Shown: positions 1 through 34,713, numbered from the stretch's first letter. The stretch: 64,000 nt of DNA from Elusimicrobiota bacterium (GCA_016715645.1 JADJZR010000004.1:101269-165268), one strand, 5' to 3'. Translations and numbers: made by a program. The notes: a model not told the origin generated them from the letters alone.

Positions 1-98
1 GCCCATTGGATTGCCGACCCGGCGGCGACGGTGTTTGAAAGCGACGGATTCGGCGGGCGCTGTTCGGTTTTGATCGTTAAATAAAAGGAGACAGAGTT

Positions 99-1262
99 AT
101 GGCGTTTTTTATAGGTCGTGATCGCGAAGCCCGGCGGGCCTACGGGTTCGACGAGGTGGCCCTGGTGCCCGGCACCGTAACGGTGAATCCCGAAGACACG
201 GACGTGTCCACACGGATCGGATCGGTCAAACTTCAAGTCCCCATTTTGGCGAGCGCCATGGACGGCGTGGTGGATGTGGAGTTTGCCGTGGCCATGGGCC
301 GGTTGGGCGGGTTGGCGGTGTTGAATTTGGACGGGGTTCAAACTCGTTACGAAAACCCCAAACCCCTCTTTAAGAAAATTTCGGAAGCCACCCCGGAAGA
401 GGCCACGCGGCTGGTTCAAGAAATTTACAAGGAGCCGTTCAAAGAAAAACTGGTGGCTCAGCGGGTGAAAGAGATTAAAGCGGGCGGGGCGTTGTGCGCG
501 GTCTCGTCGATCCCCCAAAACGCCGAGAAAGTGGGGAAAATCGCGGCCGACGCGGGGGCCGATTTGTTCGTGGTTCAAGGCACGGTGACCACGGCTCGGT
601 TCAAGTCGTCGAAGGGGCCGGTGGTGGATCTGGCCAAGTTTTGCGAGCGGATGAAAATTCCCGTCATCATTGGCAACGTCGTTACCTACAGCGCCGCTTT
701 GGAACTGATGGAAACGGGCGTGTCCGCGTTGTTGGTGGGCGTGGGACCCGGGGCGGCGTGTACCAGCCGGGGGGTGTTGGGGTTGGGTGTGCCGCAGGTC
801 ACGGCGACCATCGATTGCGCGGCCGCCCGGGACTTTTATTTCAAGAAAACCGGCCGTTACGTGACCATTATAACGGACGGGGGCATGACCACCGGCGGCG
901 ACGTCTGCAAGGCTTTCGCCTCGGGAGCCGACGCGGTGATGGTGGGCTCGGTGTTCGCCCGGGCCGAAGAGGCGCCGGGGCGGGGATTCCATTGGGGCAT
1001 GGCCACGCCACACCACAATTTACCCCGGGGCACACGCGTTCGCGTGGGGACCGTGGGAAGTCTAAAACAAATTCTTTTTGGACCCGCGTCGCTCGACGAC
1101 GGAACCCAAAACTTTGTGGGCGCGATCCGCACCTGCATGGGCGCTGTGGGCGCGACCACCATGAAAGAGTTTCAACTCACTGAAATTATCATCGCGCCCG
1201 AAATTAAGCACGAGGGCAAGCTGTTTCAACAGGCCCAAAAAGTGGGCATGGGGAAGAAGTAG
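99..1262 (+). CDS. IMP dehydrogenase family protein lacking the CBS pair (GuaB3/TIGR01304-like)
   Basis: 387-aa ORF. IMPDH-like N-terminus (ILASAMDGVV) and catalytic-loop-like GVGPGAACTSRG. No CBS insertion. SD-like aaaaggag upstream. Confidence 0.8.
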   Translation: MAFFIGRDREARRAYGFDEVALVPGTVTVNPEDTDVSTRIGSVKLQVPILASAMDGVVDVEFAVAMGRLGGLAVLNLDGVQTRYENPKPLFKKISEATPEEATRLVQEIYKEPFKEKLVAQRVKEIKAGGALCAVSSIPQNAEKVGKIAADAGADLFVVQGTVTTARFKSSKGPVVDLAKFCERMKIPVIIGNVVTYSAALELMETGVSALLVGVGPGAACTSRGVLGLGVPQVTATIDCAAARDFYFKKTGRYVTIITDGGMTTGGDVCKAFASGADAVMVGSVFARAEEAPGRGFHWGMATPHHNLPRGTRVRVGTVGSLKQILFGPASLDDGTQNFVGAIRTCMGAVGATTMKEFQLTEIIIAPEIKHEGKLFQQAQKVGMGKK

Positions 1263-1275
1263 AGGGGGATATCCA

Positions 1276-1692
1276 ATGAAAGTGGAACTGTTTGCGTTGT
1301 GCGATGCGGCCACCGAAAGCGGCGGCAAGTTGAACGTGTTGGGAATTTTCGATGTGATGGCGGGGCCGGACCTTCCGTTTTTTCACCCGGCGTGCGCGGT
1401 GGCGATCCGCCTTCGGTTTAAACGCATTGAATCGGGAACCCATCGGGTGAAGTTGGATATTGTGGATTTGGACGGTCGTCACACGGTCCCTTCATTTGAA
1501 ACCACGGTGACTGTCCAGTCGGGGGATGAAGTCGATTCGTCAGTGGCCAACCTGTTGTTGAATTTTCAGCAGTTGCGGTTTGATCGTTACGGCCGCTATT
1601 CCATCGATTTGGCGGTGGACGGTCGTCAAGAAGGGTCTTTGCCGGTCTATTTGCGGCCGGTCACGTCCCCCTCAGAAAAACCGGCCCACTGA
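1276..1692 (+). CDS. hypothetical protein (138 aa) between the guaB3-like gene and the MTase-guaA ORF
   Basis: ATG 13 nt after the upstream stop. No recognisable motifs. Tight spacing suggests co-transcription. Confidence 0.5.
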
Positions 1693-1697
1693 TTCGT

Positions 1698-4451
1698 GTG
1701 ACAACCGCGACGGTCAAGTCCGCGGGATGGGCCGATTTGCCCGATACCGTGTGGGACGAGGTGTGCGTGGGGGGGGCCTGGGGGTTTCAGGCCACGTCGT
1801 CGTTTTGGACGGCGAAACAACGGCAGGCGTGTTCTTTGCACGAGGTGTCGTATCGGGCCTGTTTTAAGCCGCAACTGCCGCGCTTTTTCATTGAACGGCT
1901 GACGGAACCAGGCGGGCGGGTGTATGATCCTTTCTCGGGGCGGGGAACCACGGGTCTGGAGGCGGGGCTCCTTGGTCGAACGCCGGTTCTAAACGACGCG
2001 AACCCCCTGGGCGCGATTTTGGCGAAACCTCGGTTTTTTGTTCCCGACCCGCAAGCGGTGGAACAGAGGCTTCGTTCCTTGGCGTGGGGCGAACAACGGT
2101 CGGCCGACCGGGATTTGTCCATGTTTTACCACCCGAAAACGGAATCGGAGATCATGGTTCTTCGAACCTATCTCAATAATCGGCGGGAGGCGGGTCAAGA
2201 AGACGATGTGGACCGGTGGATTCGGATGGTGGCCACAAACCGATTGACGGGACACTCGGCTGGATTTTTTTCGGTGTATTCACTGCCGCCCAACCAGGCG
2301 GCGTCGCCCCAAAGCCAGTTAAAAATAAACACCCGGCTCCGTCAGGCGCCGGAACCCCGGGACGTGGCGCGAATCATTCTTAAAAAGTCCCGGCAATTGG
2401 TGGCCGATCTGTCCCGGTCCGATATGGATCGGTTAGCCGAGGCAGGCCGAGCGGGGTTGTTTTTCTCTGAGGACGCCCAGCGGACGTCCGGTCTTTCGTC
2501 GAATTCGGTGGATCTGGTGGTCACCTCGCCGCCGTTTTTGGATGTGGTGCAATACGCCCAGGACAATTGGCTGAGGTTTTGGTTCAACGGTATCGACGAA
2601 AAAGAAGTGGGCGGGCGGATGTCGATGCAGCGAACCCTTGAAGAATGGTCCCGAACCATGGGCGACGTGTTTGTCGAACTGTTTCGAGTGGTTCGGTCCG
2701 GCGGGTGGGTGGCGTTTGAGGTGGGCGAAGTGCGCAAAGGGACAGTCCGGCTGGAAGAGGCCGTTGTTCCGGTGGGCATCGCGGCTGGGTTTCGGTTTGC
2801 GGGGGTTTTAGTGAACCAACAGACATTTACGAAAACGTCCCAGATTTGGGGCATTGACAACAACGCCAAGGGCACGAACACGAACCGAATCGCTCTCTTT
2901 CAAAAAAATAAAACAGAGGCCTTTATGATCGTTATTCTTGATTTCGGGTCCCAATACACTCAATTGATCGCCCGCCGAATACGGGAAGCCAACGTGTTTT
3001 GCGAGATTCATCCGTTCAACTATTCGGCGGAAAAGATCCGCACGTTGGACCCTAAAGGGATTATTTTGTCCGGCGGTCCCGCCAGCGTGTATGCCAAAAT
3101 CGCGCCTTTACCGGACCCGAAAATCTTCGAATTGGGCGTTCCGATGTTGGGCATTTGTTACGGATTGCAGGTGATGGTCAACCATTTCGGCGGCAAGGTG
3201 TCCCGGGCGGCCCGGCGGGAATACGGTCCTGCGGACATTCAGGTCGTGGCGGACAATCCTCTTTTTCAGGATTTGGGCGAGCGGATTCCGGTTTGGATGA
3301 GCCACGGCGACCACGCGGAGCGGATTCCGACATCGTTTTCCGTTTTGGCCCAAACGGCCAACGCCCCGTGCGTGGCCCTTCATCACAAAGAGCGGAACCT
3401 TTTTGCCGTGCAATTTCATCCAGAAGTCCACCACACGCCCCAGGGCAAAGAGATTTTGGCCAACTTCCTGTTTCGGGTCTGCGGCCAAAAGCCCGATTGG
3501 ACCATGACCTCTTTTGCCGAGGAACAAACCCGAGCTGTGCGCGAGCGGGTGGGCAAGGAAAAGGTTATTTTGGGGCTGTCCGGCGGGGTGGACTCATCGG
3601 TGGCGGCGGCGCTGTTGCACCGGGCGTTGGGCAAACAGCTGATTTGTATTTTCGTGAACAACGGCCTTTTGCGCGCTGGGGAAGAAGAGCGGGTGCGCAC
3701 GGTGTTCGGCAAAGCCCAGGGGTATGTGACTCACATCATCGACGCCCGGGCGCGGTTCCTGAAAAAATTGAAGGGTGTGAGGGATCCCGAAAGAAAACGC
3801 AAGATCATCGGCCACGAATTTATCAAGGTGTTCCAAGAAAACGCGAAAAAGTTGAAGGGCGTCAAATTCTTGGCCCAAGGCACCCTTTACCCCGACGTCA
3901 TTGAAAGCGTTTCGGTGAAAGGCCCGTCAGCGGTGATCAAAACCCACCACAACGTGGGCGGTCTTCCGGCCAAAATGAAAATGACGTTGGTGGAACCCCT
4001 GCGATTTTTGTTTAAAGACGAGGTTCGCGCGCTGGGCCGAACCTTGGGGTTGCCCGACGAGATCTTGTATCGCCAGCCGTTTCCGGGGCCGGGGTTGGCG
4101 GTGCGGGTGTTGGGGGACCTCACTGAAGAAAAACTGCGCATGGCCCGTGAATCCGATTCGATCGTGGAAGAAGAGATCCGGGCGGCGGGTCTTTACGACA
4201 AGTTGTGGCAGGCGTTTACGGTGTTTTTGCCGGTCAACAGCGTGGGCGTGATGGGCGACGAGCGCACGTATCAAAACGCGGTGGCGATCCGGGCGGTGAA
4301 CTCGGTGGACGCCATGACCGCCGACTGGGCCCGGTTGCCTGACGACGTTTTGGCCAAAATGTCGACGCGCATCATCAACGAAGTGCGCGGCATTAACCGG
4401 GTGGTGTACGACATTTCGTCCAAACCCCCCGCCACCATCGAGTGGGAATAA
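1698..4451 (+). CDS. in-frame fusion ORF: N-terminal SAM-dependent DNA (N4-C/N6-A) methyltransferase-like domain (~409 aa) + GMP synthase
   Basis: Single uninterrupted 917-aa ORF from GTG 1698. N-part has MTase motif I ([20 protein letters not shown]) and motif IV (VVTSPPF). No in-frame stop before the guaA start at 2925. Confidence 0.6.
2925..4451 (+). CDS. guaA: GMP synthase (glutamine-hydrolysing); canonical internal start of the fusion ORF
   Basis: [18 protein letters not shown] GATase start preceded by agagg SD at 2914-2918. GATase Cys (GICYG) and PP-loop SGGVDSS. 508 aa, the typical GuaA length. Confidence 0.9.
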
Positions 4452-4474
4452 AGACCAAAAAGGGAGCGTCTTGT

Positions 4475-5362
4475 ATGATTCAAACAGCCGATGTGCCCAC
4501 GTTGCCATTTAAAGTGTGGACCCGGGGAAAAGTCCGGGACGTTTATGATTTGGGAGACCATCTCTTGATTGTGGCCACGGACCGCATTTCGGCTTACGAT
4601 TTTGTTTTGCCCACGCCGGTGCCGGACAAGGGCAAAGTCTTGTGCCAAACCTCCAACTTTTGGTTCGCCAAGCTGGCGGACGTCTGCCCCCACCATCTGG
4701 TGGCCACGGAGGTGGCGAAATTTCCAGACGACGTTCGTCGGTCCTGCGCGGGGTTGGACGGGCGCACCGTTCTGGTAAAAAAAGCTAAACGGGTGGACAT
4801 CGAGTGCGTGGTGCGGGGCTATTTGGCCGGGTCCGGGTGGAAGGAATACAAGGAAAGCCAATCGGTGTGCGGGGTGAAACTGCCGGCGGGATTGCAGGAA
4901 TCGTCCAAACTGCCCGCGCCTATTTTTACGCCAGCCACCAAGGCCCCGGACGGCGAACACGACGAAAACATTTCTTTTGAGCGGATGGTCGCGCGGGTGG
5001 GGGCGGATTGGGCCCAGCGGCTTCGGGACGTGAGCCTCAAAATCTTTAATGCCGCGTCGGCCCACGCCGAGTCCAAGGGGTTTATTCTGGCGGACACCAA
5101 GTTCGAGTTCGGTGAACGGGACGGAAAAATTATCTGGATCGACGAAGCCCTCACGCCGGACTCGTCGCGGTTTTGGGACAAGGCCGCGCACCAGGCCGGG
5201 CGGTCCCAGGACTCGTTCGACAAACAGTTCGTGCGGGACTATTTGGTCAAAATCAAATGGAACAAACAGCCCCCCGTCCCGACGTTGCCCGACGACGTGG
5301 TCCAAAAAACCCGTGAAAAATACATCGCCGCCTACGAGCGGATAACGGGAAAAACATTTTAA
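4475..5362 (+). CDS. purC: SAICAR synthetase
   Basis: ATG 4475 after aaagggag SD. Conserved N-terminus, ~295 aa. Confidence 0.9.
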   Translation: MIQTADVPTLPFKVWTRGKVRDVYDLGDHLLIVATDRISAYDFVLPTPVPDKGKVLCQTSNFWFAKLADVCPHHLVATEVAKFPDDVRRSCAGLDGRTVLVKKAKRVDIECVVRGYLAGSGWKEYKESQSVCGVKLPAGLQESSKLPAPIFTPATKAPDGEHDENISFERMVARVGADWAQRLRDVSLKIFNAASAHAESKGFILADTKFEFGERDGKIIWIDEALTPDSSRFWDKAAHQAGRSQDSFDKQFVRDYLVKIKWNKQPPVPTLPDDVVQKTREKYIAAYERITGKTF

Positions 5363-5541
5363 TGACTGACGTCATTCCGTTTTAACCATCATCGTTCCGG
5401 AATGGCGGGTAAAAAGGCATCGACGAGACTTGGCGGATGCGTTTTCTTTAAGATTCCAGGTTGGAACGTTAACGGTGGCGCAACGGATCCCCGGTTTTGA
5501 GCGATTTCGGAAAATACATTGAGTTTTGATGTGAGGGAAAA

Positions 5542-6003
5542 ATGAATTGGCGCGTATTGGTGCACATGAAAGAATCGTTTGCCGATCACCACGGTGACGG
5601 CGTTAAAAAAGAAGCCCGTTTGGCGGGCGTGCTCGGTGTGAGCAAGGCCCGGGTGGGGCAGGCTTATGAGTTAACGGGGTCGATCCCAGAACCCACGGTG
5701 AAATCTTTGGCCGATCGGCTGTTGGCGGATCCGGTGACTCAAACGGCTGTCGTTCTCCCCGCGGACCGCCCGGCGCGCCTGGCCAAAGGACGCCGCGCGG
5801 AAGTTTGGTTTAAAAAGGGCGTGGCCGATCCCGTGGCCGACACAGTCCGGCTGGCGGCGGCGGATTTGGGCGTGAAAGGCTTGGACGAAATTCGCTCGGG
5901 CCGGGTCTTTGATTTCTACGGTTCCGTCACGCCCGGCGCGGTTCGACGTTTTTGTGAAGACCATTTGATGAATCCGTTGGTTCAAACCGTGGAGGTCGTG
6001 TGA
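5542..6003 (+). CDS. purS: FGAM synthase PurS subunit, tandem-duplicated (two PurS-like repeats, 153 aa)
   Basis: First half VLVHMKESFADHHGDGVKKEARLAGV matches PurS. Second half is another PurS-like repeat (GVKGLDEIRSGRVFDFYGSV). Stop overlaps purL GTG start. Confidence 0.8.
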   Translation: MNWRVLVHMKESFADHHGDGVKKEARLAGVLGVSKARVGQAYELTGSIPEPTVKSLADRLLADPVTQTAVVLPADRPARLAKGRRAEVWFKKGVADPVADTVRLAAADLGVKGLDEIRSGRVFDFYGSVTPGAVRRFCEDHLMNPLVQTVEVV

Positions 6004-8423
6004 CAGGGGAAACACGAACAGTGGATTTTCTTGCGTTGGATTCGGACGGGTTGGTTCGTCTCAGCAAAGAGCGGGGGCTATCGTTGAACGCCGAAGAAAT
6101 GGGCGCGATCCAGCGTTATTTTGGTACCCAAGGACGAAGTCCCTCGGATCCGGAATTGGAAACTCTGGCTCAAACCTGGTCGGAACATTGCAAACACAAA
6201 ACTTTTCGCGCCGCCGTGCACCATGTGGACGAAGACGCCGCCGGTGTTCAAACAGAAAAAAACTATAAAGATCTCCTGAAAGAAACCATAGTTAAGGTGA
6301 CTGACGAATTGCGCAAACCCTGGTGTTTGTCCGTATTCAAAGACAACGCCGGGATTGTGGACGCCAATTGGGCGGACGGGGAATGGGGTCCCCAGGCGTT
6401 GGCGTTTAAGGTGGAGACCCACAACCATCCTTCGGCGTTGGAGCCTTACGGCGGAGCGGGGACGGGACTAGGGGGCGTGATCCGCGACGTGTTAGGCGCG
6501 GGGTTGGGCGCCAAACCCATTGCCAACACGGATGTGTTTTGTTTTGGCCCGGTGGAGGATGGGGAGAAAAAAACCGGCTCCGGCCTTTCCACCCGACGGA
6601 TTGTGGAAGGCGTGGTGTCGGGGGTGCGGGATTACGGCAACCGGATGGGTATCCCGACGGTCAACGGGGCCGTGGTGTTTGACCCGGATTTTAAGGAAAA
6701 CCCGCTTGTGTTTTGCGGCACCCTGGGGCTGATTCCCCAATCCGCCATTGCCAAAGAAGTTCGGTCGGGCGACCTGATTGTCATGACGGGTGGCCGTGTG
6801 GGGCGCGACGGGATCCACGGCGCCACGTTTTCTTCCGACGCGCTCACCACGGGAATTCCTTCGAGCGTGGTTCAAATCGGCAACCCCATTGTCCAAAAGA
6901 AAATGATGGACGTCCTCTTGCGGGCCCGGGACAAGGGCCTTTATCGTGGCATCACGGACTGCGGAGCGGGCGGGCTGTCGTCGGCGGTCGGAGAAATGGG
7001 CGAAAAAACGGGCGCGCGGGTCCACTTGGAACGGGTGCCGCTGAAATACGACGGCATCGCTCCCTGGGAAATTTGGTTGTCGGAGTCCCAGGAACGCATG
7101 GTGTTGGCGGTTCCCCCGGAAAAGTGGGCCGAGTTGAAAAAGATGTTTGACGACGAAGATGTGGACTGTTCCGACATCGGCACGTTCACCAACGATGGGC
7201 GGCTGATCGTGAAACACGGTCCCCAGGTGTTGGTGGACATGGCGATGGACTTTTTGCACGACGGGGTACCCAAACGGTCCATGGAATCTCGGTGGGCCCC
7301 GCCCCCGGCCGTCCCTTTTCCAGCCCTGGGAACGAAAAAAGCGGACGGGATCGAATCGTCCTTGTTGGCCGTCTTGGCTCAACCCACGGTGGCGTCGAAA
7401 GAATGGGTGGTGCGCCAATACGATCACGAGGTTCAGGGGCGGACGGTGGGAAAACCGTTTGTGGGACCCGCGGGCGTTGGTCCGTCGGACGCGGCGGTCC
7501 TTCAGTTGTCTCCGCGCGAAAAGCGCGGGGTGGCCTTGGGGTGCGGATTGAATCCCCATTACAGCCGATGGGATCCGTACTGGATGGCGGCGTCGGTCCT
7601 TGATGAAGCCGTTCGCAACCTGGTGGCGGTGGGCGTTCGCACGGACCGCATTGCTATTTTGGACAACTTTTGCGGAGGCAATCCGTGGCGGCCAGAAATT
7701 TTGGGCGAACTGGTGCGCACCGCCCAGGCCTGCCACGACGTGGCGCTGGCCTACGGCACGCCGTTTATATCAGGCAAAGATAGTTTGTTTAACGAGTTCG
7801 TGGTAGGGGGATCTCGGCGATCCATTCCAACAACTTTGCTGATATCCGCCCTGTCTTTAGTGGATGATGTTTCCCGTTTGGTGACTATGGATTTGAAAAA
7901 GCCGGGGAACCTGTTGTTTGTGCTGGGGGAAACCCGCGACGAACTGGGCGGTTCCCGATACGGCTTGCATCGGGGAACCCGGGGCGGATCGGTGCCCCGG
8001 TTGGATCCGAAAGAAACCTGGCCCCTTTACGAGGCGCTCAGTTGGGCGATCCACGACGGGTTGGTGGCCTCGTGCCACGACTGTTCGGAAGGCGGGTTGG
8101 GCATCGCCTTGGCGGAAATGGCGATGGGGGGAGGGTTGGGGGCCGTGGTGGATTTGCGCCGGGTTCCGGTATCGGCGTCCTTGTCTTTGGAAAAGCGCTC
8201 GGACAAGGTGCTCTTCTCAGAAAGCAACGGTCGATTTGTGGTCGAGGTGGCCGCCCGCCATCGGCGGGCTTTTATGTCCGTGTTAAAGGGGTTGGTTGTG
8301 GAACAGGTCGGCGAGGTGCGATCGGCGGGTGGTTTGTGCGTCACGGACTTGGGCGCAAAGAAAGCGGTTTGGGCAATGAACGACATCCAATCGGCCTGGA
8401 ACGCAAAGGGAGGCCGGCCATGA
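6000..8423 (+). CDS. purL: FGAM synthase II (small PurL)
   Basis: 807-aa ORF. GTG start overlapping purS stop. Confidence 0.95.
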   Translation: MTGETRTVDFLALDSDGLVRLSKERGLSLNAEEMGAIQRYFGTQGRSPSDPELETLAQTWSEHCKHKTFRAAVHHVDEDAAGVQTEKNYKDLLKETIVKVTDELRKPWCLSVFKDNAGIVDANWADGEWGPQALAFKVETHNHPSALEPYGGAGTGLGGVIRDVLGAGLGAKPIANTDVFCFGPVEDGEKKTGSGLSTRRIVEGVVSGVRDYGNRMGIPTVNGAVVFDPDFKENPLVFCGTLGLIPQSAIAKEVRSGDLIVMTGGRVGRDGIHGATFSSDALTTGIPSSVVQIGNPIVQKKMMDVLLRARDKGLYRGITDCGAGGLSSAVGEMGEKTGARVHLERVPLKYDGIAPWEIWLSESQERMVLAVPPEKWAELKKMFDDEDVDCSDIGTFTNDGRLIVKHGPQVLVDMAMDFLHDGVPKRSMESRWAPPPAVPFPALGTKKADGIESSLLAVLAQPTVASKEWVVRQYDHEVQGRTVGKPFVGPAGVGPSDAAVLQLSPREKRGVALGCGLNPHYSRWDPYWMAASVLDEAVRNLVAVGVRTDRIAILDNFCGGNPWRPEILGELVRTAQACHDVALAYGTPFISGKDSLFNEFVVGGSRRSIPTTLLISALSLVDDVSRLVTMDLKKPGNLLFVLGETRDELGGSRYGLHRGTRGGSVPRLDPKETWPLYEALSWAIHDGLVASCHDCSEGGLGIALAEMAMGGGLGAVVDLRRVPVSASLSLEKRSDKVLFSESNGRFVVEVAARHRRAFMSVLKGLVVEQVGEVRSAGGLCVTDLGAKKAVWAMNDIQSAWNAKGGRP

Positions 8424-9208
8424 CGGTCAAAGCGTTGGTTCTGCGGGCACCGGGGACAAATTGCGATGTGGAAACCTCCTGGGCCCTGGAGGCCGCGGGG
8501 GCGGACCCCCAGCGGGTTCACGTGAACGCTTTGTTGCGGGGCGAGGTGTCGTTGGACGAGTTCGGCATCGTCGTTTTTCCGGGCGGGTTTTCGTTTGGAG
8601 ACGACATCGCGTCAGGAAAAGTGTTGGCCAACCGACTGGTGTATCGCCTGCGCGAACAGTTGGACAATTATTTGTCGTTGGGCCGGCCCATCGTGGGCAT
8701 TTGCAACGGGTTTCAAGTGTTGGTGAAAGCGGGCTTGTTGCCGGGCACGGCGGGCCCGTGGGACGGAACCCCCACGGTGACGCTGACCGACAACGATTCC
8801 GGCCGGTTCGAGTGCCGATGGGTTTATTTAAAAACAACGTCCAAAAAAAGTTTTTGGGTCAAGAGCCTGCCCGACGTTTTTCCTATTCCCGTCGCCCACG
8901 GGGAAGGCAAGTTCGTTGCGCTGAATCACTCGGTTTACAAACAGCTGGAAAAAAACGGCCAGGTCCTATTTCGGTATGTGGACGACCGGGGTCGCAAGGC
9001 CGGATATCCGGCCAACCCGAACGGATCGATGGGCGACGTGGCGGGGATCACCAACGGCGCGGGCAACATCTTGGGCCTGATGCCTCACCCGGAACGAACC
9101 TCGTTCCCGTTTCAAAACGCCCAGTGGACCCGTCAAAAACCGTCCAAAGATGGCGTCGGTCTGCGCCTCTTTAAAAACGCCGTCCGTTACGCGGCCCAGG
9201 TGAACTGA
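8420..9208 (+). CDS. purQ: FGAM synthase I, glutamine amidotransferase subunit
   Basis: ATGA overlap with purL. GATase Cys in GICNGFQ. 262 aa. Confidence 0.9.
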   Translation: MTVKALVLRAPGTNCDVETSWALEAAGADPQRVHVNALLRGEVSLDEFGIVVFPGGFSFGDDIASGKVLANRLVYRLREQLDNYLSLGRPIVGICNGFQVLVKAGLLPGTAGPWDGTPTVTLTDNDSGRFECRWVYLKTTSKKSFWVKSLPDVFPIPVAHGEGKFVALNHSVYKQLEKNGQVLFRYVDDRGRKAGYPANPNGSMGDVAGITNGAGNILGLMPHPERTSFPFQNAQWTRQKPSKDGVGLRLFKNAVRYAAQVN

Positions 9209-9210
9209 TT

Positions 9211-10617
9211 ATGAATCCGACCGTTGTTTCCAGAGATCCGATGGATGTGGTTCATGAAGAGTGCGGCGTTTTTGGGATTTACAACAATAAAGAAGCGGCG
9301 CGGCTGACGTATTTGGGGCTTCAACAGCTCCAGCATCGCGGGCAGGAATCCGCCGGGATTGTCAGTTCTGACGGAGATCGATTTTATTCCCATGTGTCCA
9401 TGGGATTGGTGTCCGACGTGTTTCATCAATCGGCGTTGGACAAGTTAAAAGGCCGCATGGCCATTGGCCATGTGCGTTACGCCACGGCGGGTGCGTCCAG
9501 TTTGCTCAACGCCCAGCCCATCGTGGTGACGACGGCCCGGGGACCTATGGCCATCGGCCACAACGGCAATCTCACCAACGCCATCACCCTGCGAAAAAAA
9601 TTGGAAGCCGAGGGGTCCATTTTTCAAACGTCCTCGGACACCGAAGTGGTTCTTCACCTCATCGCAAAATCGGCGGCTCCGGATTTGGTGGACGCGCTCA
9701 AGGAGGCGTTTGGCCAAGTGACCGGCGCCTACTCGATTGTCCTGCAAACCCCGAAAACCCTGTTCGCTGTGCGGGACCCCTGGGGCGTGCGGCCCCTGCA
9801 CATCGGGCGGTTGAACGGGTCCCACCTGGTCGCCTCAGAGACCTGCGCGTTTAATATTGTGAACGCCAAGCTGGTGCGGGAAGTGCGCCCTGGTGAAATT
9901 GTGGCCATCGACCACCGGGGTGTGCACACGGTGGCCCAACTGCCGGCTCAGTCCCAGGCCCATTGCGTTTTCGAATATGTCTATTTTGCCCGGCCCGACA
10001 GCCATATTTTCGGCAAAAGCGTGTACGAGGTCCGTCGGGAACTGGGCCGCCAACTGGCCCGGGAAGCCCCGGCCAAAGCGGATATCGTGGTGGCTGTTCC
10101 CGATTCGGCGTCGGTGGCCGCGATGGGCTACGCCGAAGAGTCGGGCCTTCCCCTGGAGATGGGTCTGATCCGGAGCCACTACAAGGGGCGCACTTTTATT
10201 GAACCCAAACAGTCCATTCGGGATTTCGGCGCGCGCATGAAATACGCCGCCGTGGTGGAAGCCTTGAAAGGCAAACGGGTGGTGTTGGTGGACGATTCCA
10301 TTGTGCGGGGCACCACCAGCCGCAAACTGATCCGGATGTTGAAACGGGCGGGAGCCAAAGAGATTCACATGCGCATCAGTTCCCCGCCCATGCGGGGGCC
10401 GTGCTTTTACGGGATCGATACGCCGGAATCCAACGAACTGATCGCGACGCGATTGTCGGTGGAAGGCATTCGCCGTTATTTGAACACCACCAGCCTGAAA
10501 TATTTAAGTCTGGAAGGGATGCTTCGTGCGGCGGGAAAAAAGCCGGACGATTTTTGTTCCGCCTGTTTCACGACAAAGTATCCCATCGCGATCACCGATG
10601 GCGGGAGGTTTCAATGA
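9211..10617 (+). CDS. purF: amidophosphoribosyltransferase
   Basis: 468-aa ORF. N-terminal catalytic CGVFGI and the PRTase motif. Confidence 0.95.
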   Translation: MNPTVVSRDPMDVVHEECGVFGIYNNKEAARLTYLGLQQLQHRGQESAGIVSSDGDRFYSHVSMGLVSDVFHQSALDKLKGRMAIGHVRYATAGASSLLNAQPIVVTTARGPMAIGHNGNLTNAITLRKKLEAEGSIFQTSSDTEVVLHLIAKSAAPDLVDALKEAFGQVTGAYSIVLQTPKTLFAVRDPWGVRPLHIGRLNGSHLVASETCAFNIVNAKLVREVRPGEIVAIDHRGVHTVAQLPAQSQAHCVFEYVYFARPDSHIFGKSVYEVRRELGRQLAREAPAKADIVVAVPDSASVAAMGYAEESGLPLEMGLIRSHYKGRTFIEPKQSIRDFGARMKYAAVVEALKGKRVVLVDDSIVRGTTSRKLIRMLKRAGAKEIHMRISSPPMRGPCFYGIDTPESNELIATRLSVEGIRRYLNTTSLKYLSLEGMLRAAGKKPDDFCSACFTTKYPIAITDGGRFQ

Positions 10618-11661
10618 ACGTCCTGGTGATCGGATCGGGCGGACGGGAACACGCTTTGGTGTGGGCGTTGCGCAAAAGCCAGACGGTGCGGCAAGCGTAT
10701 GCCGCGCCCGGCAACGCCGGGAGCGCCGGGTTGGCCGATTGTCTGGATGTGAACACCAAGGATGTTCGGGCGGTGATTCAGGCCATCGAGTCGAAAGAGA
10801 TCGGGCTCACGGTGATCGGGCCGGAGGCCCCGTTGGTGGACGGGTTGGCCGACGGATTGCGCGCGGCGGGCCACGCCGTGTTTGGGCCAGGCCGCGCCGC
10901 GGCTCGGTTGGAAGGGAGCAAAACGTTCGCTAAGGATTTTATGACCCGCCACGGGATTCCCACCGCCGGGTATAAGTCGTTTTCCACTCCAGCGGAAGCG
11001 TTGGGGTATGTTCAATCGGCTCAGTGGCCGGACAGTTACCGGGTGGTTAAGGCCGACGGGTTGGCCGCGGGTAAAGGCGTGGTGGTGTGCAAGAGCCGAG
11101 ACGAGGTGCAAGCCGCCGTTGAACAGATGATGGTGCACCGGGCGTTCGGCGCGGCGGGCGACCGGGTGGTGATCGAGGAGGCCATGACCGGGGAAGAACT
11201 GAGTGTGATGGCGTTAACAGACGGAGAAACCCTGTTGACCCTGCCCACCACCCAAGACCACAAACGGGTGTTCGATAAAGATGAAGGACCCAACACGGGC
11301 GGCATGGGAGCGTATGGGCCCGTGCCCCAAGTGACGAAAGAAACCTGGGCGCGGATTGAAACGGAAATTTTGGGCCGGTTTCGGGACGGCTTGAAACGGG
11401 AAAAGATCGATTACCGAGGGGTTATTTATGTCGGTCTCATGCTGACACCCACGGGGCCGCGGGTGTTGGAATTTAACGTGCGGTTCGGCGATCCGGAAAC
11501 CCAGGTGATTTTACCTCTGGTGAGTTCCGATTGGGGCAAACTGTGTGACGGGACTGGGCGAGAGCCTGGCTCTGGCCCGGGACCGGTCCTACGCCGCCGT
11601 GTCAAAAATTTCGTTCGAGGGCTCCCACCACCGCACCGACATCGCCGCCCGGGGCCTTTGA
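10614..11661 (+). pseudogene. purD: phosphoribosylamine-glycine ligase disrupted by a ~250-bp internal deletion plus frameshift
   Basis: ATGA overlap with purF. N and ATP-grasp domains intact to ...PLVSSDWGKLC (~11545). The reading then continues in another frame as VTGLGESLALARDRSYAAVSKISFEGSHHRTDIAARGL* (stop 11659-11661), which is the PurD C-terminus. About 80 aa of the C-domain are missing. Junction at ctgtgtgacg. Confidence 0.7.
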
Positions 11662-11720
11662 CCGGGATTTTCTGGTTGGCACAGGGCATTCGTTGACTTG
11701 CCAAAAGCCTGTGACGCGCA

Positions 11721-13059: not shown

Positions 13060-15530
13060 AACGACCGTAAGCCGTTGAGCCTTTCGACCCCCGTGGGGGG
13101 TTTCTCTAATGGCGGGGTTTTTAAATTTTGAAAAACTCCGTATTCCCATTTCCTTTCCGAATCTCTCCCACTCCTACTGGAGACATTATCATTTGACAGG
13201 TGACTATCCATCCGGCCGACACGATTGACCCTGTAGCATGGGCTTCCAGCCCATGTGGTTTTGCATGGGCCTTTGGAATTTAAGGGGGATGGTTGGGAGG
13301 GGGTGGCTGTGAATCTTCCTTCTCCCGTCCGTGGGAGAAGGTGTCCCGAAGGGACGGATGAGGGGCGGTTTTCCGTTGAACGAAGCCCTTGTAATTCCCT
13401 CGCCCGCTGGTGACTGCGCTAGCAAGAAATGCCGTGTGGGAACGGCCGGGAGAGGGCCAGGGAGAGGGTGGGCGTATTTCACCTCACCCCCACTGGGGGA
13501 GGCCGGTCGCAGAGCTCCCGGCACCTGGGGCGGCAGAGCCGCTGATGCGAGGCAGGGAGCGGGGGGCGTTTTTTTAGCTTCAATTTGTGCCCGCTATGCG
13601 GGCGCCACAGCGCGCCGCTGTTCTCTCCACGTTCTCGTCCAATGAATGGGACAGTAAGCAGGACAAGACCTGGATCTTCGGACCTGGCGAACGCCACGGT
13701 GACCGTGCTCGAACCCCCGGCCACCGAGAAACCCAGCGCCTTTCTTCGCTCATCGAAAACAGCCCCGCCACAGGAAGAAGAGGCCCAGCCATTTCGGGCC
13801 GGAGGAGGAAGCCGGGACCTTGGTTGAATTGCTGGACGGGGAAGAATGGGGACCGCTCCTCTTTCGGTGGATAAAAACGACTGTTCGCCAGGCCACCCAC
13901 GGCGGCGGACTGTGCGCCTGTTAAACGCTAACGGTTGATTCGTCTGCTGTTGAGGGAACAAGCGGACGACCCAACAAGCGGAGAAACCCCACGCTGGACG
14001 AACGCCCGTCGCGGCGCATCAAACGCGCCCAACTCCTGCCTCCAATTTCGACGTTTCCAGCTCCGATCCACGGGAAAAGCCGCGCGGCCTTTTTGCCGCG
14101 CCCCGCTGGGCTCCGGCGGATTCGTTCCCGCCGGACCGGTTCCGCCCATTGCTTCGGTCGGGAAACGGAAACCCGCTGACGGTTATTCTGTCAGTCGCGA
14201 GAGATGTGTTTCCCGCTCCGGTTTGCGGGAAACCCCGCGCCGGACGAACGCCCGTCGCGGCGCACCAAACGCGCCGCAACTCCTGCCTCCGATTCCAACG
14301 TTTCCAGCTCCGGTCCAACGGAGAAGCCTCGCGGCCTTTTTGGCCGCGCCCCGTGGGCTCCGGCTGAATCGTTCCCGGCCGGACCGCTTCCGCCCCTTGC
14401 TCCGGTTGGGGAAGGGAAACCCGCTGACGGTTATTCCGTCGGTCGTGGGAGATATGTTTCCCGCTCCGGTTTGCGGGAAACCCCGCGCCGGACGAACGCC
14501 CGTCGCGGCGCATTAAACGCGCCGCAACTCCTGCCTCCGATTCCGACGTTTCCAGCTCCGGTCCACCGGAAAAGCCGCGCGGCCTTTTTGGCCGCGCCCC
14601 GCTGGGCTCCGGTGGAATCGTTCCCGCCGGAGCGATTCCGCCCATTGCTCCGGTTGGGGAACGGAAACCCGCTGACGGTTATTCCGTCGGTCGCGGGAGA
14701 TATGTTTCCGGCTCCGGTTTGCGGGAAACCTCGCTCCGGACGAACGCCCGTCGCGGCGCATCAAACGCGCCGCAACTCTTGCCTCCGGTTCCGACGTTTC
14801 CCGCTCCGGTCCACGGGAAAAGCCGCGCGGCCTTTTGGCCGCGCCCATGAAGCTCCGGTGGATTCTTTCCCGCCGGACCACTTCCGCCCATCGCTTCGGT
14901 CAGGGAACGAAACCCACTGACGGTTATTTCGTCGCTCGCGGGAGATATGTTCCCGGCTCCGGTTTGCGGGAAATCCCCGCGCTGAACGAACGCCCGCCGC
15001 GGCGCATTAAACGCGCCGCAACTCCTGCCTCCGATTCCGACGTTTCCCGCTCCGGTCTACGGGAAAAGCCGCGCGGCCTTTTTGGCCGCGCCCCGCTGGG
15101 CTCCGGTGGAATCTTTCCCGCCGGACCACTTCCGTTCATCGCTCCGGTCGGGGAACGGAAACCCACTGACGGTTATTTCGTCGGTCGCAAGAGATATGTT
15201 CACAGCTCCGGTTTGTGGGAAATCATTGCTCCGGACGAACGCCCGTCGCGGCGCATGGTTTCCGGACGAGCGTCCTCCAACCAGCCCTTCGGACCCGGGG
15301 CCTGTTCGGCCCGCGCCAACCGTGTGCCGCCCGCCTCCACGGCTCGGCATTAAACGCGCCGCAACTCATGCCTCCGGTTCCGACGTTTCCCGCTCCGGTC
15401 CCACGGAGAAGCCGCGCGGCCTGAGGCCGCGCCCCGCTTCCGCCCCGGCCCCGCTCTGCGGGGCTCCACCTCCCGGCCCGCCGGTCACCTATGGGCTTCG
15501 CCCTTTCTTCGCGCGCGCACACCAAAATCA
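13060..15530. repeat. left arm of a ~2.47-kb inverted repeat (unique ~0.9 kb + tandem-repeat array); partner at 31330-33790
   Basis: Reverse complement recurs at 31330-33790. ORF-track peptides are identical on opposite strands (13204-13524 minus = 33350-33754 plus). The two tandem arrays are ~95% identical to each other. Confidence 0.9.
13996..15480. repeat. tandem array of ~6 copies of a GC-rich ~247-bp repeat (last copy has a ~95-bp insertion)
   Basis: Unit starts at 13996, 14242, 14490, 14738, 14983 and 15233 (periods 245-250). Each unit holds three GCTCCGGT motifs at spacings 92/64/92. It also contains the hairpins gcgcggcc-ttttt-ggccgcgc and gcgccg-N14-cggcgc. Confidence 0.9.
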
Positions 15531-16935: not shown

Positions 16936-17932
16936 TCACAACCCGGCGAGGAAGGCCATGACGCCCGGGTCCGTTTTCCAGGGTTTGACTTGGCGTCCCG
17001 TCCCGGCGACGTTGCAACGGGCCAGGGCCTTGGCCTTGGTTTCAAAATCGACCTCGGCGTAGATCAATGTGGTGTCCAGTGAAACATGCCCCAGCCAGCC
17101 GCGGATGGTGTTGATATCGACGCCTGAGCGGAGGAGGTGGACGGCGGCGGTGTGGCGGAGGGTGTGCGGGCTGATGCGTTTCTTGAGCATGTCGGGATTG
17201 GTTTTGGCGGCGACGGCGGCATATCTCTGGACGAGTTCGTAGAGGCCGAACCGCGTGATGGCTTTCCCGCCGCGGCTGATGAAGACCGGATCTTCGGGCG
17301 TGCGGCCTGCGGTCAAGCGCTTGAGGGCTTTGACCGTTTCCGGCCAAAGCGGGCAGAAGCGCGTCTTGCGGCCTTTGCCCAGAATTTTGACGGAGGACGA
17401 TCGCCCGAGGTCCAAGTCTTGGATGGTGAGTCGGGCGACTTCATCGGCGCGGGCGCCGGTGTTGTAGAAAAAGAGCAGCACGGCGTAGTCGCGGAACCCG
17501 AGTGAATCCTTAATATTCGGGGCCAGCCTGAGCGCGTCCATTTCCGATTTGTCGAGGTAGGGGACCTGGGGCCTGCCTGTTTTTCTTGAAAGGGACGACA
17601 TGAAGAGCTGAACACCAGGCGACGTGTTCCGGGCTATGCAAGGCGATGAATCGTGCGAGTGAATGGACGGCCGCCAGCCTGTGGTTGCGTGTGGCGATTG
17701 AACAGTGGCGGACCTCTTCCAGGTGGGCGAGGAAACGGCGGATGGCGTCCGGGGAGAGGTCCTCCACATCCAGGCGGTCGACGGGTTTTCGGGCGAGCCC
17801 TGCGGCGAAGGGGAGCAAGAGGACCAAGGCGTCGCGGTAGCTGGCCTGGGTTTGGAGCGCCAGGTTGCGCTCACCGACGATATGCTCCAAGAGAAAGCGT
17901 CGAATCCAGGTACCGACGAGGGCGTTAGACAT
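16936..17932 (-). pseudogene. tyrosine recombinase (ritC-like), frameshifted near 17560-17600
   Basis: N-terminal core-binding domain in one frame (17932-17510). Catalytic domain (HTLRHTAAVHLL...LGHVSLDTTLIYAEV) in another frame. Frames overlap at FKKNRQAPGPLP / SRKTGRPQVPYLD in a C/G run. Confidence 0.7.
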
Positions 17933-18869
17933 GGGAATCCTCCGAAAAGGCGTAGCGGTGGAAGCGGCGGTTGGCGGCGGCGAGGAGCTCCGGGGTCAAG
18001 GTGAGATAGACCTGCGTGTCTTGAAGATGGCGATGGCCCAGGTAAACAGAGAGATGATGGAGTCTTGTGGAGAGGTCCGCGCCCGGCGGCATTCAGGCCA
18101 GGAGCCTGTGGACGGCGGCCGAATGTCGGAGGTCGTGGAGCCGTGGCTAGTAGCGTGCGTCGGCTTCCCGACGGACGCCCGCCTGGTTGCAGATTCGTCG
18201 AAACCAGCATTCGACGGTGGGATGGGACAGGCGGCGACCCGAGCGACGGCCGACGAAGAAGGGTTCTGTCGTTGAGGAGGATTTTGCCCATGGCTTTCGT
18301 TTGACGGCGTAGGCCGTGAGGACTTGGGCCAGCTTGGGGCCAATGGGGACCAGACGTGTCTTGAAGAACTTGGTGTCGCGGATGGTGAGGATCCTCTGGT
18401 CCAGGTCCACGTCGGCGACGGTGAGGAGATCGCCTCGCCGATGCGCAGGGCCGCGCCGTAGAGGGTGAGCAGGACGGCGTGGAGCGTGAAAGGCTCCAGC
18501 TCGTAGGCGAGCTTCATCCGCATATGAGCGACGGCCGCGAGGATCCGGCGGATTTCCTCCGGGCGTAGATGTAGGGTTTCATGCGCTCGGGTTTCTTGGG
18601 TTCGAAGGCCGGGAGGGGCAGTGGAAGGGGAATCTCTCTTCCCGCGCGAAGCGCTGGAGGCCCCGGAGGGCGCTGGCCTTGTGGTGCCAGTATTGGGTAA
18701 GTGGCCCTGAACCGTTGAGAGGCCAGGACCTTGTCGGGTGAAATGCGGCGGTGGTTGCTTTTTCCGATCGTTCGACGAACAGGCGCAGGGCGCGGGCGTA
18801 TGTATCGAACTTCTTGCCAAGGGAGCGTTTGTAGGCGATGTAGCGCTCAACGAGGACGGGGAGCTTCAT
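17929..18869 (-). pseudogene. tyrosine recombinase (ritB-like), at least 3-4 frameshifts
   Basis: Pieces in different frames: MKLPVLVERYIAYKRSLG; HETLHLRPEEIRRILAAV...LYGAALRIGEAI; DLDQRILTIRDTKFFKTRLVPIG; LHDLRHSAAVHRLLA; LGHRHLQDTQVYLTLTPELLAAANRRFHRYAFSEDSHV*. Stop overlaps the ritC ATG. Confidence 0.65.
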
Positions 18870-20100
18870 AGGACCTCCCCCAAGTCGAAGGCGGCGACGT
18901 CGCGTAACGCCGGGAGGTCGACTTTGGCGTAATGTCGGGTGGCGTCGGCGCTCCTGTGGCCGAGGTGGTTGCCGATTTCGGGCAGGGAGAAACCTTCGGA
19001 AACGAGCCGGCTGGCGCAGGCGTGGCGGAGGCAGTGGGGCCCGCGATGGAGGAGCTTGATCCCGGCGCGGTCGATGGGGTTGGCGACGACGGTCCAGAGG
19101 GCCGCGGAGGAGATCGGCCGGACAGGGGCCAAGAGACATAGGAAGACCTCGCGGTGGTGGGTCTTGGGGCGGACCTCTTTCAGGTAACGCAGGATGGCCC
19201 GGCCGACCGAAGGGATAAGCGGATATGTCTGGCGGCGGCGCTGCTTGGTCCTGGGAACGGTGATGCGATCACGGCGCCAGTCGATGTCGTCCAGGCAAAG
19301 GCGGGCGACCTCACCGGCCCTGAAGCCGTAGACGGCGAAAAGGAGGAGGATGGCCCTATTGCGGACGTGGGAGGGGCGGCCGGTGTTCAGGGCGGCGAGG
19401 AGGCGCTTAACCTCGGCCAGAGGGCCCGCGGGGCAGACCTTCGCGGGAATAAATAGTCGGGCCATGGAAGGCATCGGCGAGGCCCGGAGAGCAGAGGCGT
19501 CGGATTTCGGCGTATCGCAGGAAGGACCTGGTGGCGTTGGCGACGTTGAGGACACCGACGCGGGAGAGGCCCTGGGCATGACAGGCGGCCAGGAAGTCGT
19601 CAAGGTCGACGACGCGTAGGCAGAAGAGCGGACGATTCTTCGGTTCCCACCACCGGAGGAAGGTGAGGAGGCTGTATTTGCGGTTCTTGAGCGAACCGAC
19701 GGAGAAACCGCGCTCATGCTCCAGCCAATTGAGGGAAATCCCGGTAGAGGGTCCACAGGGGCCCGGCAGCGGGAGTGGGATCCTTCCAGCGGCCGAAGAA
19801 ACGGAGCCATTGTTTAAGCAGACGTCGGAGTGTCTTGCGAAGATAGGGTAAAACCCGGCCATGACGTTGGCGGACGAAGCGCGCGATGACCGCCTCCACG
19901 CCGGCCGTGTCATGGACCCCGTCGGCCAAGAGCTGGATTGCGGGGACCAAACGGAGCAGGTCCACGGCGGTTTGGGCCAGGTGTCCTGGTTTGTATCCTT
20001 GACGGTCGAGTTGGGCAAGAAATCGCCGGCGTTCTTCTGACAGCGGGGCAGCTTTGTGGCGGGCAACGGCGGACGGGAGCGAGAAGATTTTATCGAACAT
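18866..20100 (-). pseudogene. tyrosine recombinase (ritA-like), two or more frameshifts
   Basis: N-terminal extension MFDKIF... (20100-~19745). Core-binding domain GISLNWLEHERGFS...RSFLRYAEI (~19742-19410). Catalytic domain RNRAILLLFAVYGFRAGE...HCLRHACASRLV...LGHRSADATRHYAKVD (to 18866). Confidence 0.65.
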
Positions 20101-20253
20101 GGTCGGGCACCTCCGAGGGATTGGATACACCCAACCAATACAGCGACTTGTTATGTTATGTCAAGGCAAGGCGTGCTCGACAGAAACAGAGGGCAAAGCC
20201 AACATAAGTACGAGCCCAACATAATACCGCTTATGTTATGCACAACATAAGCG

Positions 20254-22308: not shown

Positions 22309-23709
22309 TCAGCGCGGCTGAGCGCGTTCGCGCCAGTGGCGATCCCATCGGCCGTCTTGGGAGTGATAAAGGGCACACAAGGCGAGCATTTCTTCGGCCC
22401 CCGTTTGATGAGGAGGCTGAGTTTCGGTGGGCTGAAATCCATTCCAAAACTTCTCACTTCCTTTCATGCGCAAGCCGAATTGTTTGACAGCGCCTTCGGC
22501 CACCCCGGACCCAATGGGCCATCCGTTGGCCCGGAAGCGGGGATAATCCATCGCGGTTTGGTTGTTGGGAAAATAGGAGGTGGCGTTTTGGTGGAGGACT
22601 CGGCGCGGAGATGCCTCCGAATCGGTTTCGGTCGGTGGTCCCAGCCGGTCGGATAAACAACCAAGATCGGCGATGATCCGGTCGGATTTTCCCTCCCAGA
22701 GCAACTCCTTGTGGTCCTCAAACCAGCGGAGGGCATCCGGCGTTCCCTCTCCGAAGGCGGCCTTAGCGCAGTCGGAAAGATGTTGGGCGGCGTGGGCCCA
22801 ATCAAGAATAAACGTGGCTTCCGGGAAATGCAGGTTCTTGAGCTCGCGGATCGACCGAGCTCCATCCGCCACGAATAAGCGATTTTCGGCGCGGGCGTAT
22901 CCCCGGCGTTCGGCTTCCACACGTAACAGCCACCCCATGGCCTCCCAGTCGGCCAGAGTGGCCACGTAGGTTTTTGTTTTTGCCTTCGCGCCTTCGTATT
23001 CACCCCGGGGAACGTGCGGCTGGGGGGTGGCCGTCGCGTCGTAGACGATGCCGATTTTGTCCTCCTTCCACCGTTCCCGAGGATCCGCCGATCGCGTCTG
23101 CACCCGTCCGCCGTCCGCCGCGATCACCAGCAGTCTCGGCGCCTGCGTCGTGGACGCGGGGCGCGCCCCGGCTTGATAGGAGGTCCGTTCCTGATCGCGC
23201 TCTTTGCGCACACGGCCCCCCTCCGTTCCCGCGATCCATCGCACGTGTTTGGCGCTCAGATCAACGTTGGAATGAACCTGAAGGATCTCTCGCCCCGCTT
23301 CAAAAGACCGCCCCACCACCGCCGCGTGGCAAATCTTCTTGCGCGTCTCCACGCTGGGACCAAACGGCGGAATCCCCAACGCCTCATCCAGCGGCGCGCC
23401 CGTGTGTCCGCACCGGTCGCAGACACCATAGGCCCGCCGGTATTCAATGGGTCCCACCGCCGTTTGAATCACCCGCCGTTGCGCTGTATTCTGAAACCGC
23501 CACCGTCCTGTGCAATGTCGACAGCGGGCCTCCTGGGGATGCGTTCGGGGGTCCTCCTCCAAACGCGATGTGAGCATCGCCTGGGCCAGCTCACGGCCGA
23601 GGCTCTCCGCAAACACCGCCAATTCCGACAGGGTCATGTCTTTCGTCATGGAATAACGCATCCTCCCGAAGTTTCCTTTTGATAACGTCAGAAAATCCGT
23701 CTCGTTCAT
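22309..23709 (-). CDS. DDE transposase, ISKra4-like
   Basis: 466 aa. N-terminal CxxC...CxxC zinc ribbon. DG and ILDWAHAAQHL motifs. Family assignment made from memory. Confidence 0.6.
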   Translation of the reverse strand: MNETDFLTLSKGNFGRMRYSMTKDMTLSELAVFAESLGRELAQAMLTSRLEEDPRTHPQEARCRHCTGRWRFQNTAQRRVIQTAVGPIEYRRAYGVCDRCGHTGAPLDEALGIPPFGPSVETRKKICHAAVVGRSFEAGREILQVHSNVDLSAKHVRWIAGTEGGRVRKERDQERTSYQAGARPASTTQAPRLLVIAADGGRVQTRSADPRERWKEDKIGIVYDATATPQPHVPRGEYEGAKAKTKTYVATLADWEAMGWLLRVEAERRGYARAENRLFVADGARSIRELKNLHFPEATFILDWAHAAQHLSDCAKAAFGEGTPDALRWFEDHKELLWEGKSDRIIADLGCLSDRLGPPTETDSEASPRRVLHQNATSYFPNNQTAMDYPRFRANGWPIGSGVAEGAVKQFGLRMKGSEKFWNGFQPTETQPPHQTGAEEMLALCALYHSQDGRWDRHWRERAQPR

Positions 23710-24128
23710 GGAAGGGGTTGGATGCGAGATCGCCCCATCGCATCAATCAAGCGAAGAATCTCCCTCTGCCATTTCACCCACCGATCTCGCGCTTGCCGGA
23801 ACTGGCGGTATCGCCCCGTCCATTCTCGGGCCAGGCCCACCCGATCGGGGGGCAGGGTCCAAAGCCGTGTTCGGCCTTGAACGCTGGCGGTCAGAACCAC
23901 CGTGGTGTGGGGTTTCCCCCGCGCGCAACGGCAGGAGGGTTTTGAACATTTTCGGCGAAGCGTATACACCGTTCCGCGGGCCGAGGGCCCCGGCGCGACG
24001 AACACGTCCAGAAGGCTTTTACCGGCGGGGTTCTCGATCAGCGTCAAGAGGCGCCGACGAAGTAAGCTGAGTTTTCGGTTTGACTGCATGTTGTTATACA
24101 TAATAGCATACAGAATAAAAAAAATCAA
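23706..24128 (-). CDS. IS-associated hypothetical protein (140 aa, Cys-rich KCSKPSCRCARGKPH)
   Basis: ATGA overlap with the transposase. Lies inside the IS boundaries. Confidence 0.45.
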   Translation of the reverse strand: MIFFILYAIMYNNMQSNRKLSLLRRRLLTLIENPAGKSLLDVFVAPGPSARGTVYTLRRKCSKPSCRCARGKPHTTVVLTASVQGRTRLWTLPPDRVGLAREWTGRYRQFRQARDRWVKWQREILRLIDAMGRSRIQPLP

Positions 24129-34629: not shown

Positions 34630-34713
34630 CTTGACTCCTGTATTGCTATTGAAGTATCATCACGTGAGTATTTAGAATTTGTCATAGACAATAATAACCA
34701 TTGGAGGCACCCC

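Follow-up and report, generated by a model that had tools for sequence, protein, structure and literature searches.

Organization of the locus

The window, i.e., the whole 64-kb stretch of Elusimicrobiota DNA that was analysed, carries a cluster of nucleotide-biosynthesis genes near its beginning. In the ORF listing of the window, a single open reading frame of 917 aa with a GTG start was found on the plus strand from 1698 to 4451, and it contains no in-frame stop codon. Its N-terminal part is an amino-methyltransferase (MTase) and its C-terminal part is the GMP synthase GuaA. The first-pass annotation had described a methyltransferase region that reads without a stop into guaA, and the ORF listing confirmed this. 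Across the junction the reading frame is TTT CAA AAA AAT AAA ACA GAG GCC TTT ATG. The genes and features of the locus are listed in Table 1.

Table 1. Genes and sequence features at the MTase-guaA locus, in window coordinates
Feature	Position	Strand	Remarks
guaB3 (IMP-dehydrogenase-related, GuaB3 family)	99..1262	+	TIGR01304, 452.5 bits (cutoff 342); opens the conserved block
DUF6941 gene, 138 aa	1276..1692	+	PF22091, 120 bits; always between guaB3 and the MTase gene in the lineage
Solitary Type II-family amino-methyltransferase gene	1698..2911	+	404 aa in relatives, closing with FQKK and a TAA; this TAA is shifted out of frame by one base in the window
AdoMet-binding loop, motif I, DPFSGRGTT	1926..1952	+	Residues 77-85; invariant in the family alignment
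Catalytic loop, motif IV, SPPF	2526..2537	+	Residues 277-280; invariant in the family alignment
A7 homopolymer	2902..2908	+	One base shorter than the A8 of every other assembly with the same linker
guaA Shine-Dalgarno sequence, AGAGG	2915..2919	+	Followed after 5 nt by the ATG at 2925; kept in L001, L002 and L054
guaA, glutamine-hydrolysing GMP synthase, 508 aa	2925..4451	+	Complete from its own ATG; residues 411-917 of the fused ORF
purC (SAICAR synthetase)	4475..5362	+	PF01259, 246 bits; 295 aa in relatives; next gene of the block

The GuaA part matched the GuaA model NF000848 from end to end (profile positions 1-512 of 512; 797.9 bits, cutoff 400). It also contained all three domains of the enzyme, namely GATase (PF00117), the NAD_synthase-like ATP-pyrophosphatase (PF02540) and GMP_synt_C (PF00958). 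The start of guaA is identical in the relatives, where it belongs to a separately called gene of 508 aa. The earlier observation that the guaA start is preserved, with the AGAGG sequence and the ATG ahead of a full-length GuaA, was therefore correct.

The position of the MTase gene between its neighbors had been regarded as odd. The gene described as a CBS-less IMPDH paralog encodes a member of the GuaB3 family, and the product described as an unknown protein of 138 aa is a DUF6941 protein. The guaB3 gene is 94-99% identical in the lineage relatives, and the identical DUF6941 protein is present in three other assemblies. The gene order in the lineage is RNR, dCTP deaminase, GGDEF protein, GuaB3, DUF6941, MTase, GuaA, PurC, PurS and PurL; the order from GuaB3 to PurL is conserved across the lineage, and the location of the MTase gene directly before guaA is thus its ordinary one. 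A scan of the whole window with Rfam at the gathering thresholds gave zero matches, indicating that the gua-pur cluster has no known riboswitch or leader.

The N-terminal methyltransferase

The amino-MTase motifs reported for the N-terminal region were found as described, and both DPFSGRGTT and SPPF are invariant in an alignment of 38 family members. The curated PADLOC model PDLC03325 (MTase_II) matched the full length of the protein (E=6.9e-145, residues 35-404, model positions 55-424 of 426). The match to PF01555 was above the gathering score (49.7 and 26.7 bits, respectively) and covered profile positions 140-205 only, which is the motif-I end. There was no MTase-specific model in NCBIfam, the sole match being a weak one to TIGR01177. 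The family is large and highly conserved, with 50-60% identity across Bacteria and Archaea, and its members carry the name 'site-specific DNA-methyltransferase' in NCBI records.

A sequence search of the PDB with the MTase returned only M.PvuII and one other weak match. M.PvuII (PDB 1BOO), an N4-cytosine MTase with an SPPF motif, is the nearest solved sequence relative, and the two proteins have in common a motif I of the form DPFxGxGTT and the motif IV SPPF. However, compared with M.PvuII the motifs of the window MTase come in a circularly permuted order: motif I lies on the N-terminal side, and a helical insert of ~180 aa separates it from motif IV on the C-terminal side. The motif I region (residues 45-98) aligned to residues 225-279 of PvuII, which are C-terminal in that protein, and the SPPF aligned to the N-terminal SPPF of PvuII. 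The AF2 model of the MTase (pLDDT 84.8, pTM 0.87) consists of a class-I SAM MTase core and the helical insert. Its best fold matches in the PDB were the class-I amino-MTases Trm11, TrmN, AviRa and Dam, all with a probability of 1.00, although the large insert kept the TM-scores down to 0.3-0.4. Of the solved folds in which the motifs follow the same linear order, the Trm11/TrmN-type amino-MTases and Dam are the nearest.

Its motifs and profile matches identify the N-terminal part as a genuine amino-MTase, for which DNA-methylation activity is predicted. The likeness of its SPPF motif to that of M.PvuII points to N4-cytosine as the target, which we regard as a lead only. An RNA substrate is conceivable, since the top structural matches of the model are RNA m2G MTases.

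The A-run at the junction

The TAA codon at 2909-2911 sits just after the A7 run and is one base out of frame in the window, and consequently the MTase frame continues through the 15-nt spacer into the frame of guaA. Indels in this run were simulated. With eight A residues the ORF became a 404-aa MTase that ends in FQKK followed by the stop codon, and with six A residues it ended at a TGA overlapping the ATG of guaA. Residues 1-402 of the MTase were intact in the A6, A7 and A8 versions alike. The six linker residues of the fused product, NKTEAF, are the translated intergenic spacer including the Shine-Dalgarno sequence of guaA. The fused ORF is due to the A7 run alone. Translational read-through, one of the explanations offered by the first-pass annotation, is inapplicable, because the frame of the window holds no stop codon that could be read through.

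Comparison with related assemblies

Near-identical assemblies were found via exact-sequence look-ups of the DUF6941 and PurS proteins of the window. All five other assemblies that share the linker (L001, L002, L051/L055, L052 and L054) carry A8 and an in-frame TAA. In these relatives the MTase gene ends with ...TTT CAA AAA AAA TAA, and guaA starts 13 nt after the stop codon. L001 is the contig of the closest MTase homolog, P0001, a protein of 404 aa with 86% identity that ends in ...NRIALFQKK, and its gene order is the same as in the window. L002, a GTDB representative (Elusimicrobiota MAG JAYRXX01), shows 91% amino acid identity. The other three are near-identical at the nucleotide level, namely GCA_020054605.1 (L051/L055, 99.75-99.80% identity over window 1-7587), GCA_018057525.1 (L054, 99.80% over window 1-7590) and GCA_018060765.1 (L052, 99.53% over window 1215-5270), and in each of these alignments the A-run was the only indel. 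Two further alignments, to a second contig of GCA_018060765.1 (L056, 99.96% over window 4825-10007) and to Logan SRR11088465 (L057, 99.96% over window 4419-6938), contained no indels. Together, the near-identical sequences cover window 1-10007; the missing A is the only indel there, and it is unique to the window. All other homopolymers of at least 7 bases in this region, among them a G8 and a number of A7 and T7 runs, agree with the near-identical assemblies.

The junction is different in the more distant part of the lineage. Two loci (L044 and L045) end with CAG AAG TAG, have a spacer of 58-73 nt with in-frame stop codons and lack an A-tract; a third (L046) has A5 only, with a 17-nt overlap at the junction and a GTG start. 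JGI metagenome contigs were also searched with a pattern accepting either the A7 or the A8 linker, and zero matches of either kind were obtained. The exact 508-aa GuaA of the window had no record in an exact look-up.

Search for fused homologs

No record of the exact 917-aa product was found among 153 billion gene positions. When the whole product was compared with 1.84 billion representative proteins by phmmer, none of the best 150 of the 33,744 matches covered both halves, and the top score of 629 bits came from GuaA alone. The best 120 MTase homologs included no fused protein; all of them are stand-alone proteins of 373-461 aa. One homolog, P0268, was considered as a second fusion, since it matched the query as far as residue 447, yet BLASTP and Pfam showed that its C-terminal extension is unrelated to GuaA. 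The MTase-GuaA architecture had been noted as unfamiliar, in agreement with its absence from all of the protein searches.

Other frame disturbances in the window

An indel was simulated at every run of at least 7 bases in the window, and only two positions, 13569 and 33300, were flagged, which are the two arms of one inverted repeat. In a self-trained coding-frame Viterbi scan, frame breaks clustered at 17.7-19.5 kb and 26.3-29.2 kb, with an additional break in purD. The czcA gene (~26352-29484) showed about nine frame switches in comparison with an intact homolog of 91% identity, and relative to the DNA of that homolog it had both insertions and deletions of 1-3 nt, some of them outside homopolymers. 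The coding sequences of two or three tyrosine recombinases in tandem are divided between frames, and purD lacks the GARS_C domain, its conserved tail being in another frame. The broken czcA, recombinase and purD genes lie in or beside a repeat-bounded mobile island at ~11.7-36.3 kb of the window, which is unrelated to the MTase-GuaA junction. We rejected these breaks as clean proof of sequencing error, because the mixed indels of czcA fit real decay equally well. They are compatible with genuine decay as much as with a poor consensus, and were counted neither way.

Origin of the fused reading frame

In principle, the fused ORF could encode an evolved bifunctional protein of the Rosetta-stone type that couples DNA methylation to guanine-nucleotide synthesis, and throughout this Elusimicrobiota lineage the MTase and guaA genes indeed lie side by side in the same orientation. 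However, a stop codon is present in the linker of all five assemblies sharing it, three of them at 99.5-99.8% nucleotide identity, which is a result that the first-pass annotation had itself named as refuting; the junctions vary among the relatives from a 13-nt gap to a 58-73-nt gap or a 17-nt overlap; and the searches described above yielded no fused homolog. An evolved, meaningful fusion is thus effectively refuted, and we give it almost no credence. Alternatively, the A-tract could be a functional recoding or contingency site, at which slippage of the RNA polymerase, of the ribosome or, reversibly, of the DNA deliberately yields some MTase-GuaA fusion. On the A8 of the relatives, slippage by minus one base would produce exactly the fused frame of the window, and bacteria are known to show transcriptional slippage on A and T runs (Baranov et al. 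2005, PMC1088944). The junction resembles such transcriptional slippage and programmed frameshifting systems in that a one-base slip on an A-run alters the products, but it differs from them in that a second functional frame is dispensable, guaA having a start of its own. In addition, most genomes show slippage-related selection from a length of ~9 nt (PMC1088944), and the tract of 7-8 nt is below this length. It is not conserved in the lineage either, being absent from L044 and L045 and reduced to A5 in L046, and the linker is merely the translated Shine-Dalgarno spacer. A programmed function of the tract is accordingly very improbable. A phase-variable MTase (phasevarion) was also considered and rejected: the tract encodes the last two codons of the MTase gene, which makes on/off switching of the MTase impossible, and residues 1-402 stay the same in the A6, A7 and A8 versions.

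The explanation we favor, and hold to be reasonably probable, is that two ordinary co-oriented neighbor genes were joined by a one-base under-call of the homopolymer in a long-read-based consensus. The window is contiguous over 64 kb, through 2.4-kb inverted repeats with 248-nt tandem arrays, and the near-identical short-read-like assemblies fragment into contigs of 4-10 kb, which suggests that the window assembly is of long-read origin. The error that typically remains in long-read assemblies is a homopolymer indel in the consensus that upsets gene calls (Sereika et al. 2022, PMC9262707), and here one base is missing from an A-run that is among the longest of the region. As in the errors described there, a single-base indel in an A-run shifts the frame and is unique to one assembly. 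Unlike the usual homopolymer errors, the indel lies in the last codons of the MTase gene and merges two ORFs instead of splitting one. We infer that the missing base is an error rather than a mutation. Against an error, the rest of window 1-10007 is free of indels relative to the near-identical assemblies, and the agreement of the other homopolymers there indicates a consensus that is generally good at homopolymers. The A7 allele also leaves both domains and the guaA start intact, and might therefore be tolerated in a real strain.

These points favor the view that A7 is a real, very recent and strain-private replication slippage from A8. Such a strain would make an MTase-NKTEAF-GuaA chimera of 917 aa (~100 kDa) as well as free GuaA from the AGAGG/ATG start, and the chimera would be an accident, neutral or mildly deleterious. 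Homopolymers of 8 bases are slippage-prone and A8 tracts are genuine mutational hot spots. Furthermore, ~0.2-0.5% substitutions separate the window from its nearest relatives, so these are different strains, in which private mutations are expected. On the other hand, A8 has been kept in all five other assemblies at 86-99.8% identity, suggesting that length changes at this tract are selected against, the public gene calls searched do not contain the fused product, and the loss of one base from a long A-run is the exact form of consensus errors (PMC9262707). A real slip is hence possible but doubtful to us. The fuller picture, in which a domesticated, restriction-less Type II MTase that is fixed in the gua-pur operon has now become fused to the GMP synthase beside an internally initiated free GuaA, appears somewhat unlikely. 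If it were true, the window would be a snapshot of a Rosetta-stone fusion born from a slip in the A-tract of a terminal Lys-Lys-stop. The A7 allele, if real, would be a small, datable case of gene fusion by homopolymer slippage, without evidence of selection.

Returning to the under-called consensus, the MTase of 404 aa and GuaA of 508 aa would be separate proteins in the real organism, and termination and re-initiation would probably be coupled on one gua-pur operon transcript. The recent loss of a stop codon, also put forward in the first-pass annotation, holds only in the trivial sense that a 1-nt change from A8 to A7 moves the TAA out of frame; as the origin of a meaningful fusion it fails, the change being a slip or, more likely, a consensus error. 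The fused ORF is best handled as a likely consensus error, or at most as a private slip mutation. The case calls for caution, since the loss of one base from a terminal A-run can mimic a striking new domain architecture, and near-identical assemblies, once compared, expose such an artefact at once.

A solitary methyltransferase in the gua-pur operon

In other phyla, a small ORF of the same orientation follows the homologs of the MTase gene, mostly 0-10 nt downstream. At nine such loci the ORF after the MTase gene encodes a Type II restriction endonuclease (REase; PDLC03511, E=2.4e-42) at a distance of 3-30 nt, or 470 nt in one locus, and at five loci the partner is a different, unannotated protein of ~180 aa. 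Neither the REase nor the other partner families were found by tblastn in the 64-kb window or in the lineage loci, where the neighbors of the MTase gene are in all cases the DUF6941 gene and guaA. The gene was filed as a solitary MTase of a Type II family because the window and the lineage loci have no REase partner.

Within the lineage, the MTase has diverged to 68-71% identity, compared with 65-68% for DUF6941, 67-68% for PurS and 84-87% for GuaA. Divergence in step with its neighbors fits a solitary methyltransferase that is passed on vertically and kept by purifying selection. The orphan MTases Dam and CcrM share with the window MTase a fixed chromosomal position and the lack of a cognate endonuclease nearby, but the window MTase belongs to another family. 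To our knowledge, neither Dam nor CcrM has been described as lying within a gua-pur operon. The MTase of this Elusimicrobiota lineage is therefore best described as a candidate orphan methyltransferase: a member of a family that has an REase partner elsewhere, it appears to stay alone and at a fixed place in a nucleotide-biosynthesis operon.

Conserved gene order around the methyltransferase

The gene order around the amino-methyltransferase (MTase) is shared across the Elusimicrobiota lineage. At window positions 99-8423, in two more distant lineage loci (L044 and L046) and in the near-identical assembly GCA_018057525.1 (L054), it reads (RNR, dCTP deaminase, GGDEF/CBM48 protein), GuaB3, DUF6941, MTase, GuaA, PurC, PurS, PurL, the bracketed genes lying upstream of GuaB3. 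The uncharacterised DUF6941 was found between GuaB3 and the MTase in every case in this lineage; in other phyla it was not found as a companion of the MTase. The lineage member GCA_016721625.1 has an additional gene, with an ORF6N domain, separating guaA from purC, which shows that the gene junctions of the gua-pur operon can take insertions.

Downstream of the MTase homologs, loci L015, L017, L020, L022, L023 and L025 from other phyla were examined. There the MTase gene shares a two-gene operon with the gene of a ~220-aa Type II restriction enzyme, which was matched by the PADLOC model PDLC03511 and not recognised by Pfam. A different partner, unannotated and ~180 aa long, stands beside the MTase homolog in five further loci.

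Features of the window and of locus L044
Feature	Location	Strand	Description
purD	10603-11694	+	GARS_N and GARS_A, without GARS_C
Long inverted repeat	13091-15519 and 31337-33784		arms of ~2.4 kb
Tyrosine recombinases	16939-20160	-	three in tandem; PF00589 and SAM-like N domains
UPF0236 transposase-like ORF	22309-23742	-
CzcA-type RND heavy-metal efflux gene	26352-29484	+	interrupted
Inverted-repeat pair	33760-34108 / 35939-36288		~350 nt, 99% identical
Large serine recombinase	34606-36153	+	Resolvase, Recombinase and Zn_ribbon_recom
ORF6N-domain gene	L044 7857-8363 (GCA_016721625.1)		168 aa, between guaA and purC

The mobile island downstream of purD

Although GARS_N and GARS_A were found in the window purD, GARS_C was absent, and the protein seems to lack ~70 residues. 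Past ~11542 the conserved C-terminal tail (GLGESLALARDRSYAAVSKISFEGSHHRTDIA) runs on in another frame, and the gene sits immediately upstream of a mobile island. Frame changes were also observed in the tandem tyrosine recombinases, a set similar to a 'recombinase-in-trio' element: at least two of these genes encode the N-terminal and catalytic domains in different frames. The CzcA-type gene is broken up by about nine frame switches, with mixed indels of 1-3 nt, many of them at short G/C runs. Its in-frame pieces are still 88-100% identical to the intact 1046-aa CzcA homolog P0271, and the interruption may reflect either a pseudogene or a consensus that was poorly resolved here.

The arms of the long inverted repeat are 91-100% complementary and separated by 16-20 kb; within each arm, a unit of approximately 248 nt is repeated 5-6 times in a tandem array. 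Reading frames across these arrays have a non-coding appearance (GC2 ~0.65), and a gathering-threshold Rfam search over the whole window returned no matches. The shorter inverted-repeat pair overlaps the ends of the large serine recombinase gene. Together, this pair, the serine recombinase, the UPF0236 ORF and the czc genes mark ~11.7-36.3 kb of the window as a mobile island.
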